Sequence record: NC_014662.1
Direction: 5' to 3' (one strand)
Source of the DNA: Enterobacter phage CC31
DNA length: 64,000 bases
The position numbers and the translations under genes are program-made. The notes beneath the pieces were generated by a model. That model ran no database searches. It had not been told where the DNA came from and saw only the letters and a list, made by a program, of their open reading frames with translations. Below, in pieces: positions 42,226-55,819 of the stretch; the first letter of the stretch is position 1; every line of letters starts with the position of its first letter.

Positions 42226-42450
42226 TTAGTTGCAAATTTCAGAAATAGTGTCAGCCAAGAATTCGCCAGTTTCGTCAGCGCCTACGCAGTAAGATTCAGT
42301 TAAGAATTTTACAATTTTCTCACGAGGACCGAATACTTTGTATTCATATCCCCATTCTACATCGCCTGCTAATTCGCAGTTAAGACCAAATTGTTCAACT
42401 TCAGCTTCGAAATGTTCTTCATCTGCAACGCCGAGATAGATATGTGCCAT
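42226..42450 (-). CDS. hypothetical acidic protein
   Basis: 74-aa ORF. Confidence 0.45.
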   Translation of the reverse strand: MAHIYLGVADEEHFEAEVEQFGLNCELAGDVEWGYEYKVFGPREKIVKFLTESYCVGADETGEFLADTISEICN

Positions 42451-42480: not shown

Positions 42481-42512
42481 GTATAGTAACACAGCTTAAA
42501 GCGGATGTAAAC
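42481..42512 (-). promoter_or_regulatory. T4 early-promoter-like element
   Basis: GCGGATGTAAACGG with GTATAGTAACAC -10 region. Confidence 0.5.
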
Positions 42513-42519
42513 GGCAGAA

Positions 42520-42581
42520 TTAACGTAACGTATAAGTTACTTTAGGTGGGAATTGGGAGGTTAATGTAACGTATAAGTTAC
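42520..42581. repeat. two copies of a 21-bp direct repeat (TTAA[C/T]GTAACGTATAAGTTAC), each containing the palindrome GTAAC-N6-GTTAC, 41-bp period
   Basis: Read directly at 42520-42540 and 42561-42581; 20/21 identical. Confidence 0.8.
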
Positions 42582-42600
42582 GATTCCAGAAACAACAAAA

Positions 42601-42620
42601 GGAGCCCGAAGGCTCCTTCT
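42601..42620 (-). terminator. bidirectional intrinsic terminator downstream of gene 32 (GGAGCC-CGAA-GGCTCC with T runs both sides)
   Basis: Read directly. Confidence 0.65.
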
Positions 42621-42624
42621 TTTA

Positions 42625-43545
42625 TTACAGACCGTTCAGCAGTTCGTCGAGGTCTTCATCACCGCTGGAGGCAGAACCGCCAGTTTCCATGAAGTCTTCA
42701 GCTGGTGCTGATTTCTGAGAACCTGCGTTAAAGTTCGCGAGGTCATCTTCAAAGTTGTCCAGGTCTTCACCAACTTTATCAGCCTGAGCAGAAGCGCGAG
42801 ACGCGGCAGTACCCATAGCAGCTGTACCCATAACCTGAAGGAATTTCTTCTGGTTATCTTCGAAAGATTTGAACTGGTCTTTCGCAGTCAGAGTGGTCAG
42901 GTCGACCATTTGTTCCTGCAGTTGTGCCTGATAAGCTTCATCTTCGATATTAGGAATCTCAGATTGACCAAGGAACTTGGATTCATCGTAGTTGCTGAAA
43001 CCAGATACTTTCTTAACTTTCAGAACGAAGTTAGCACCTTCAAACGCACAAGTTACGTCGATTGGAGTTTCGCCCATTTCAACGTCAACGGCAACCATTG
43101 CATTGATTTTGTCCCAAATTTTCTTACCGAAACGATATTTGAAGACTTTACCTTCGTTTTCTGGAGCAGCCGGGTCTTTAACAACCAGGATGTTCGCGTA
43201 GTAAGAAGTTTTGCGTTTCAACAGCTTGTATTCTTCGTTGTTGGTGTTATATGAATCATTCTTGGACAGATATTGACATACTGGGCAAGAATCATAATCA
43301 CCGTGGGTAGAAGTACAGTTTTCAATGTACCATTTACCGCCTTTCTTGAAGCCGTGATTCACCAGAACAGCGAATGGTACGCCTTCATCACCTTTACCTG
43401 GCAGGAAACGGATGACCGCTTGACCGTTACCAGCATTATCCAACTTCAGTTTCCATTCACCTTTATCTTCGGAATTGAAACCTTTAGAACCAGACAGGGA
43501 AGCCAGTTGGGAAGCCAGGGCAGCAGGATTTTTACGCTTAAACAT
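42625..43545 (-). CDS. 32: single-stranded DNA-binding protein gp32
   Basis: 306 aa; near-identical blocks to T4 gp32 as recalled ([44 protein letters not shown], acidic C-terminal tail). Confidence 0.96.
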
Positions 43546-54881: not shown

Positions 54882-55538
54882 ATGACCCAGAGAACACCAC
54901 TACCAGGAATATCTGACATTTTATTTGGTGTTCTAGACAGACTCTTCAAAGATAACGCAACCGGGAGGGTACTTGCTTCCCGGATTGTTGCTCTGATAGT
55001 TGTTTTCATTCTTTCGCTTACATGGTATCGCTTGGATGCTATAATGCAAGTATGGAAAGAGTCTCGTTATGAGACTTACACTAAAGTTTTGCAACAAGAT
55101 AAAGAGGCTAAATTTGAAGCATCAGCTCTAGAACAACTACAGATAGCTCACGTTTCGAGCAATGCAGATTTTTCCGCAATTTACTCATTTAGACCACGCA
55201 ACTTAAACTACTTTGTGGATTTAATTGCATATGAAGGGCGACTGCCTAGCACAGTCAACGAAAAAAATTTGGGAGGATTTCCAGTTGATAAGACTTCGAA
55301 CGAATATTCTGCTCATTTGAGAGGTGCATATTTCTCTTCTGAGGATGAATTTGTTTTCTTACCGACTAAGAAAAAGGATGGGGAGTTGAAGTACATGTAC
55401 TCGTGCCCGTATTTCAACCTGGACAACGTTTATGCCGGGACAGTTTCCATGTACTGGTATAGCAAACCACTCTTAAATGAAAATAGATTGGCCGCAATTT
55501 GTAGTCAAGCTGCTAGAACTTTAGGAAGAGCCAAGTAA
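54882..55538 (+). CDS. t: holin T
   Basis: 218 aa (same as T4 holin as recalled); near-identical blocks (SDILFGVLDRLFKDNATG, YMYSCPYFNLDN, QAARTLGRAK); one N-terminal TM helix. Confidence 0.95.
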   Translation: MTQRTPLPGISDILFGVLDRLFKDNATGRVLASRIVALIVVFILSLTWYRLDAIMQVWKESRYETYTKVLQQDKEAKFEASALEQLQIAHVSSNADFSAIYSFRPRNLNYFVDLIAYEGRLPSTVNEKNLGGFPVDKTSNEYSAHLRGAYFSSEDEFVFLPTKKKDGELKYMYSCPYFNLDNVYAGTVSMYWYSKPLLNENRLAAICSQAARTLGRAK

Positions 55539-55546
55539 CAAGGATG

Positions 55547-55819
55547 TTACGGCTTGCTGTACATCATCATATAGCGATATACTGATTCAAAACCTTCATT
55601 AAACTCTTCAACTAGCTGCTGTTTTTCTTCAGCTGTCATTTCTTCAATCATTTTACGGAAGTTACTCTGATTCAGAGGACGACCCAAATCATTCTTAATT
55701 CCAATTTCATTCAAAAATGCAATAAAATGTTCGCGTTTTTCAAGAATGTGTTCAGAACCAAATTTAATCAATACAGAAGCCACAGTAACAATTTCACGAA
55801 CAATTTCAAGTTTAGACAT
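55547..55819 (-). CDS. asiA: anti-sigma-70 protein AsiA
   Basis: 90 aa; matches T4 AsiA as recalled (REIVTVASVLIKF, NFIAFLNEIG, EEFNEGFESVYRY). Confidence 0.92.
   Translation of the reverse strand: MSKLEIVREIVTVASVLIKFGSEHILEKREHFIAFLNEIGIKNDLGRPLNQSNFRKMIEEMTAEEKQQLVEEFNEGFESVYRYMMMYSKP

Follow-up and report, generated by a model that had tools for sequence, protein, structure and literature searches.

A Karamvirus-specific insert with two dyad repeats lies between the gene 32 terminator and the frd.3 early promoter

Why should two nearly identical palindromic repeats stand between the terminator of gene 32 and the early promoter of the next gene in a T4-type phage? We asked this of Enterobacter phage CC31, a Karamvirus, in a 64-kb stretch of its genome (hereafter the window). 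The window belongs to a PG7-like T4-type Enterobacter phage and is 96–98% identical to many isolates. Genes around the element are transcribed from the minus strand, and the first of them after the promoter, a Frd.3-like ORF, is followed by small ORFs as far as dihydrofolate reductase. The first-pass annotation had reported two near-identical 21-bp copies spaced 41 bp apart, each with dyad symmetry, in the interval that separates the terminator of gene 32 from the early promoter that follows. These descriptive points all held when we re-examined the locus, the last of them by predicted coordinates (Table 1).

The two copies form a 21-nt direct repeat in which 20 of 21 positions match (95% identity), with starts 41 nt apart. 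Both contain the same 16-bp core, GTAACGTATAAGTTAC, which occupies 42525–42540 in copy 1, beginning 13 bp upstream of the −35 hexamer, and 42566–42581 in copy 2. The core has the dyad form GTAAC-N6-GTTAC and is self-complementary at 14 of 16 positions (a minus-strand match with 2 mismatches). Each copy being almost a palindrome, the two can equally be read as an inverted repeat, an imperfect one, in which arms of 21 nt show 86% complementarity around a loop of 17 nt. Across the 64-kb window, no other two 21-mers that differ at 1 position or fewer lie within 100 bp of each other, and such pairs arose in 0 of 100 windows simulated under a first-order Markov model. The exact 16-bp core is likewise found within the window solely at the 42520–42581 pair. 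The repeat pair is thus real and clearly non-random.

Table 1 Features of the frd.3–gene 32 locus and the early-promoter family, in window coordinates
Feature	Position	Strand	Basis or remark
Frd.3-like small acidic ORF, first gene after the promoter	42226..42450	(-)	Pfam Phage_FRD3 E=1.7e-5, below the curated cut-off; PG7 annotation 'Frd.3'
Predicted sigma-70-type early promoter of frd.3, TTTACA-17-TACTAT, TG-extended	42483..42511	(-)	
Karamvirus-specific insert, 65 bp: copy 1 + 20-bp spacer + copy 2 + 3 bp	42520..42584	.	Absent in sister lineages
Copy 1 (promoter-proximal), TTAACGTAACGTATAAGTTAC	42520..42540	.	Direct read and repeat search
Spacer between copies, 20 bp, G-rich, TTTAGGTGGGAATTGGGAGG	42541..42560	.	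Unique in the window
Copy 2 (distal), TTAATGTAACGTATAAGTTAC	42561..42581	.	Direct read and repeat search
Predicted gene 32 intrinsic terminator hairpin, GGAGCC-TTCG-GGCTCC + T tract	42597..42620	(-)	Terminator-like on the + strand too
Gene 32, single-stranded DNA-binding protein	42625..43545	(-)	Pfam gp32 E=9e-60 and annotation in relatives
Early-promoter family, 54-nt	17585, 24213, 25203, 32267, 41559, 42177, 42466, 55838, 58821, 59469; plus 62211	(-)	

Several neighbouring signals were recorded in passing. A perfect GTAAC-N6-GTTAC also occurs at 55535–55550, across the 8-bp gap between two convergent genes; it was rejected as a further dyad site, the TAA in each arm being the stop codon of the ORFs that end at 55538 (+) and 55547 (-). 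On the plus strand, 42553–42569 reads GGGAGG-TTA-ATG-TAA, a Shine–Dalgarno-like sequence followed by a start-stop mini-ORF antisense to all local genes, which is probably coincidental. The annotated 54-aa ORF that spans the repeats and overlaps the frd.3 start in COW86c (L003:1720-1884) and RZH (L008:1736-1900) is probably spurious, because neither the window nor the other relatives inspected preserve it as a reading frame. An extra 79-aa ORF lies just downstream of frd.3 in KMB20 (L002:1527-1766) and PS49 (L117:969-1208); no similarity between it and frd.3 was detected, and as an ORFan indel it is typical of hyperplastic regions.

With the predicted transcription start set 7 nt past the −10 hexamer, the basis of all upstream positions given here, copy 1 as a whole falls at about −44 to −64 and its core at about −49 to −64; the core of copy 2 falls at about −90 to −105. 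The dyad centre of copy 1 is 24 bp from the centre of the −35 element, a non-integral number of helical turns. Because the insert separates them, the terminator hairpin (42620..42597) stands ~85 bp from the −35 element in the window, as against ~20 bp in Moonvirus and Gelderlandvirus.

The frd.3 early promoter is itself one of ~10–11 near-identical promoters repeated in the window, all on the minus strand and of the form CCGTTTACA-N17-TAYTAT with TG. Most of these start where the gene before them ends, directly at its stop codon (TAACCGTTTACA), and therefore have coding DNA in place of an UP element. The dyad motif is found upstream of the −35 element in none of the other ~10 family promoters of the window; since coding sequence lies there instead, this promoter type has no need of the motif. 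The 40 bp upstream of the frd.3 −35 element are 65% AT, and the corresponding fraction in other family promoters is 0.50–0.72. Derivation of the element from the promoter family was rejected, its best local alignment scoring 17 against a shuffle mean of 18.5, and no promoter-like or terminator-like site was predicted inside it. The earlier remark that promoter and terminator patterns seen elsewhere in the window fail to explain the element was therefore correct.

Terminator hairpins coupled to early promoters are known in T4-type phages as promoter-early stem-loop (PeSL) cassettes (Arbiol et al. 2010, PMC2839356; Comeau et al. 2014, PMC4122927). Other GC-rich hairpins in the window are also repeated: GGGCCCGAAGGCCC has 6 copies (24788, 30997, 33855, 41861, 61819 and 63042), and GGGAGCCGCAAGGCTCCC has 2 near-identical copies (1896 and 17256) and 2 weak family members (3260 and 37542). 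They probably supply the stem-loop part of cassettes of the PeSL type.

We then compared the locus across relatives. A blastn search with the element found 31 phage records bearing the insert, all of them Karamvirus; the output gave one place per record, except for two records listed with a second place. The motif is kept at this locus in every one of the 31. Karamvirus has 65–66 extra bases at the terminator–promoter junction, starting with copy 1 and ending with copy 2. At the identical junction the insert is absent from Moonvirus (Moon, KM16 and CF1), from Gelderlandvirus (CGG4-1 and ABTNLPp2) and from L109 (JACCDQ010954429.1), a 1498-bp metagenomic T4-like contig. The insert-free junction reads GATGTAAACGG(CAGAG/TTAGC/CATAC) and then directly T(C/T)CA(G/A)AAACAACAAA(A)GGAGCCC, the terminator, which is nearly invariant in relatives. 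Gene 32 of L109 is 83% identical to that of the window, compared with 75% for Moon and 72% for CGG4-1, and by this measure L109 appears as a closer sister lineage of Karamvirus than Moonvirus is. The alignment of L109 with the window breaks precisely around the insert. Because the insert is absent in L109, Moonvirus and Gelderlandvirus, its gain would postdate the divergence of Karamvirus from the closest lineages sampled; the alternative, at least 3 losses, is less parsimonious.

Wider searches gave the same picture. A metagenome scan with the terminator returned one contig, L109, and an IMG/VR scan with the promoter returned known genomes only. Scanning IMG/VR for the exact core recovered two-copy loci in Karamvirus genomes only; 89 other core matches were single, unrelated occurrences, and L089, the one with a nearby second copy, was dismissed as a related element, being a coding repeat. 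Within the databases searched, the element is single-copy and genus-restricted; it is neither a dispersed motif nor a proliferating mobile element. The exact core occurs at one Karamvirus locus only, once per genome, and the idea of a genome-wide signal was dropped.

Could the insert nonetheless be the footprint or target of a mobile element, either an insertion of the MITE kind, bearing inverted repeats at its termini, or a site recognized by a homing endonuclease? Its discreteness, its precise absence from sister lineages and its inverted-repeat ends, in which CGTAAC...GTTACG pair, would suit such an origin, as would the free-standing endonuclease genes that adjoin gene 32 in relatives (in KM16, between genes 59 and 32). 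We consider it highly improbable, however: there is one copy per genome and none elsewhere in the phage database, IMG/VR or the metagenome scan, and a clear target-site duplication is absent. No endonuclease gene lies between frd.3 and gene 32 in the annotated Karamvirus loci inspected, leaving the homing-endonuclease-type target proposed in the first-pass annotation unsupported. On the far side of gene 32, the gene between genes 59 and 32 in KM16 (L010:2518-3078) is annotated as a homing endonuclease, and T4 has an unannotated 210-aa ORF between the same two genes (L105:2044-2676), which we take to be segG. In the window, gene 59 directly follows gene 32, with no extra gene of the KM16 or T4 type.

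The two copies have fared very differently. We compared 17 distinct alleles, with third codon positions of g32 (36% variable) and frd.3 (64% variable) as the baseline. Variable columns numbered 2 of 25 in the 5'UTR, 3 of 36 in the core promoter and 1 of 16 in the copy 1 core, where only the central T/A varies (pi 0.019). Beyond copy 1 the counts were 5 of 20 in the spacer, which has no indels, 5 of 16 plus an 8-bp deletion in the copy 2 core, 6 of 9 in the junction after copy 2, and 4 of 34 in the terminator. At the g32 synonymous rate ~6 variable columns would be expected in the copy 1 core, and finding 1 or fewer has P ~0.01; the 5 of 16 in the copy 2 core is unremarkable at that rate (P ~0.5). 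The constancy of the copy 1 core extends to the most divergent genomes, COW86c, RZH and CW742 (~11% g32 divergence).

Changes to copy 2 include the 8-bp deletion, which takes its right arm in COW86c and RZH, and a separate arm substitution in myPSH1140. The arms of both copies are intact in 14 of 17 alleles. At the central T/A, every one of the four possible pairings of copy 1 with copy 2 is found: T/T (window), A/A (PG7), A/T (Pet-CM3-4) and T/A (KaAlpha). Because all four occur, concerted evolution of the copies was rejected, as was compensation between them. Overall, this asymmetric conservation suggests that the proximal copy behaves as constrained promoter DNA and the distal copy as near-neutral DNA. 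The low diversity of copy 1 is nevertheless shared: the stretch from the 5'UTR to copy 1 is uniformly low in diversity, including the normally unconstrained spacer between −35 and −10, so the constraint cannot be attributed to the dyad itself. Copy 1 constancy could reflect a local low-diversity tract instead of selection on the dyad.

On this evidence we tentatively favour, as plausible though well short of assured, an upstream cis-module of the frd.3 early promoter composed of one functional dyad and one decaying duplicate. The 65-bp insert splits the gene 32 terminator hairpin from the frd.3 early promoter within a PeSL-type cassette. Where the terminator T-tract abuts the promoter in sister genera, the proximal dyad takes that upstream position in Karamvirus, and at about −49 to −64 it is held constant like the core promoter. 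There it may serve as a cis-acting contact surface, either for the alpha C-terminal domains of RNA polymerase or for one dimeric, class-I-type factor. The distal dyad, 41 bp away, would be a decaying duplicate that has become dispensable. Anatomy, lineage restriction, the single copy per genome and the asymmetric conservation are observed; that the element modulates the promoter, and that copy 2 is in decay, we infer. Several observations speak against this reading: the low diversity of the whole tract that includes copy 1, the ~10 family promoters that do without the motif, the only moderate AT content of copy 1 (65%), and a dyad centre set at a non-integral number of helical turns from the −35 centre.

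A functionless scar is possible too, if doubtful. Here the insert would be what remains after an ancient insertion event, or a partial duplication, at a PeSL junction prone to recombine, with copy 1 constant because it lies in a low-diversity tract. The spacer, copy 2 and the junction do evolve at approximately synonymous rates, copy 2 has been truncated and inverted without consequence, the motif is unique and has no regulon, and sister lineages function without the insert. The junction between stem-loop and promoter in PeSL cassettes is, moreover, a documented recombination point (PMC2839356). Against a mere scar stand the retention of the insert in all 31 Karamvirus records, a 41-bp register free of indels in inspected alleles that keep both dyads, and the constancy of the copy 1 core described above, even in COW86c, RZH and CW742.

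The first-pass annotation had instead read the repeats as paired sites for a dimeric DNA-binding protein. The dyads and the 41-bp spacing on which it relied stand; the pairing fits poorly with conservation of the promoter-proximal copy only, while the distal copy drifts and is truncated or inverted. In its fullest form, both dyads would be operators for a dimeric phage or host protein (TyrR-like, for example), whose cooperative binding at two sites four helical turns from each other would repress or activate the frd.3 promoter. Each site does have 5-N6-5 dyad symmetry, the spacing is maintained without indels, and the intact arms combine with a central 6 bp that tolerates both the T/A change and inversion, as expected for arm-only recognition. 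The model is weakened because the distal site is unconstrained (no constraint is detectable, and the site is destroyed in COW86c and RZH), because there is no regulon, and because no candidate binder was found; we judge it unlikely. Searches of the phage database and IMG/VR revealed no second locus with the motif in any genome, and in the window neighbourhood Pfam found no DNA-binding domain in the nine ORFs downstream of the element, where frd.3 is strongly acidic.

The resemblance to TyrR boxes deserves separate treatment. A TyrR box is TGTAAA-N6-TTTACA, strong boxes have at least 10 of 12 matches, and weak boxes need an adjacent strong box (PMC4374768). Aligned in that frame, copy 2 reads TGTAAC-N6-GTTACG (9 of 12 matches) and copy 1 reads CGTAAC-N6-GTTACT (8 of 12); in each, 14 bp separate the essential G from the essential C. 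Like TyrR boxes, these are 18-bp 6-N6-6 dyads, two of them upstream of a sigma-70 promoter, and the phage infects Enterobacter. Unlike them, the phage boxes are 41 bp apart and not adjacent, and both fall in the weak-box class; the strong box that they would require is absent nearby. The activating ipdC TyrR box lies 33 bp from the −35 centre, compared with 24 bp for the centre of phage copy 1. The dyad arms also resemble the phage −35 element (GTTTACA), and the likeness to TyrR may be incidental.

Paired dyads of this kind occur in other bacteria. We scanned 185,579 species-representative bacterial genomes for paired GTAAC-N6-GTTAC, and among the 120 matches listed there was no enteric match. 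Matches listed from Rhodobacterales and marine gammaproteobacteria (L118-L237) carry TGTAAC-CTTGAC-GTTACA, then 15–20 bp, then TGTAAC-GTCAAG-GTTACA, for example at L150:5216-5263, L182:2610-2657 and L133:4514-4563. Among the matches listed, 26 of 44 such loci have the pair upstream of a ~135-aa membrane protein, and 7 of those 26 have a small XRE-type HTH gene nearby. This pair is probably the operator of a small XRE-type regulator. From this family it follows that proteins reading the GTAAC-N6-GTTAC dyad exist, and apparent operators with paired TGTAAC-N6-GTTACA in other bacteria count in favour of the operator model; yet the family is unrelated to the phage element, sharing its dyad arms at a different spacing, and no homologue of the associated XRE regulator was found in the window.

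That the dyads are operators of some particular dimeric regulator, whether encoded by Karamvirus or by the host (as TyrR would be), we regard as quite improbable. Were it so, a T4-type early promoter heading the block from frd.3 to frd (dihydrofolate reductase) would be under sequence-specific, factor-dependent control. To our knowledge such control is undescribed for early promoters of the T4 type, which are generally considered to depend only on recognition by the polymerase and on ADP-ribosylation.

Another property of the pair emerged from individual alleles, in which copy 2 has been inverted. In KMB20, PS49 and IMG/VR contig L040, copy 2 reads GTAACTTTTACGTTAC, the exact reverse complement of their own copy 1 (GTAACGTAAAAGTTAC); in Entb_43 it reads GTAACTTATACGTTAC, the exact reverse complement of its own copy 1 (GTAACGTATAAGTTAC). 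The inverted copies, at L002:2078-2093 (KMB20), L117 (PS49), L040:7733-7748 and L114 ~1540-1555 (Entb_43), correspond to window 42566–42581. The inversion entails 4 simultaneous changes in KMB20, PS49 and L040 and 2 in Entb_43, and the centres of the inverted copies are TTTTAC and TTATAC in two different genetic backgrounds. By flanking distances Entb_43 adjoins the window, UFV01 and KaAlpha; the flanks of KMB20 and PS49 are near myPSH1140 on one side and near SonariX and VPA32 on the other. Because the inverted alleles sit in different flanking backgrounds, two independent inversion events in natural isolates are likely.

Multi-base changes that create perfect complementarity are the signature of template switching or inversion at quasi-palindromes, as established in classic work on T4 rII and in E. 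coli. The present case resembles quasi-palindrome templated mutation in that copy 2 turned into the exact reverse complement of the copy 1 core in multi-base steps. Since the unit is quasi-palindromic, the copies make up an imperfect inverted repeat, which has probably undergone palindrome-templated inversion twice. The arms would be preserved through such an inversion by the very construction of templated switching. The comparison tells how the element mutates and is silent on its purpose. Read in this way, the locus would be a clean natural example of palindrome-templated inversion, seen twice in closely related phages.

A hairpin of copy 1 paired with copy 2 (a 21-bp imperfect stem with a 17-nt loop), formed in gene 32 read-through RNA or in single-stranded DNA, might signal processing, back-up termination or recombination. 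On folding, the window allele reaches −12 kcal/mol as RNA (z=−3.1) and at −10.3 as DNA (z=−4.1), and two lineages have perfect 16-bp complementarity and reach −20 kcal/mol. Folding of the 17 alleles nonetheless showed the long stem to be weak or absent in most, and a conserved RNA or DNA hairpin was rejected: the stem is predicted, weakly, in 7 of 17 (among them the window, UFV01, KMB17, KMB20, PS49 and Entb_43) and is stable, at about −20 kcal/mol, solely in 3 inverted alleles. Most alleles lack it (MFE −4.6 to −10.4, z about −0.6 to −2.8). Because it is stable in inverted alleles only and impossible in COW86c and RZH, we consider a conserved hairpin function very unlikely. Lack of compensation at the central T/A, the absence of a T-tract after the stem and the location of the element downstream of a strong terminator also tell against it, and an Rfam search of the element returned sub-threshold noise only.

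If the favoured reading of a promoter module is true, the insert would be a lineage-specific add-on to a stereotyped T4-type early promoter and PeSL cassette, and would offer a handle on how PeSL cassettes diversify. If it is a relic only, it would show that the terminator–promoter junction downstream of gene 32 tolerates insertions. On either reading this is a modest local regulatory or relic element and not a new system, and no major question is opened; its significance would rise substantially only with a specific binder.

How does the locus compare with known regulatory architectures? T4-type early promoters are of the UP/−35/TGn/−10 type, in which upstream DNA matters (Hinton 2010, PMC2988021). 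Copy 1 may be compared with the UP elements and far-upstream regions of these promoters (PMC2988021): it lies in the region contacted by the alpha-CTD, is moderately AT-rich (65%) and is conserved like the core promoter. It differs in being a dyad-symmetric GTAAC-N6-GTTAC and not A/T tracts, and in that the dyad occurs at only one of ~11 early promoters of the window. The locus can also be compared with PeSL cassettes, which are themselves AT-rich in a stretch upstream of −35 (PMC2839356). As in those cassettes, a module between genes, bordering a plastic region, places a GC-rich terminator hairpin next to a strong sigma-70-type early promoter, both of families repeated in the window. In the five described PeSL subclasses the stem-loop lies within or directly beside the promoter and there is no such repeat module, whereas here a unique 65-bp insert with two dyads comes between stem-loop and promoter. 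The feature is thus a PeSL-type cassette with an inserted dyad-repeat module.
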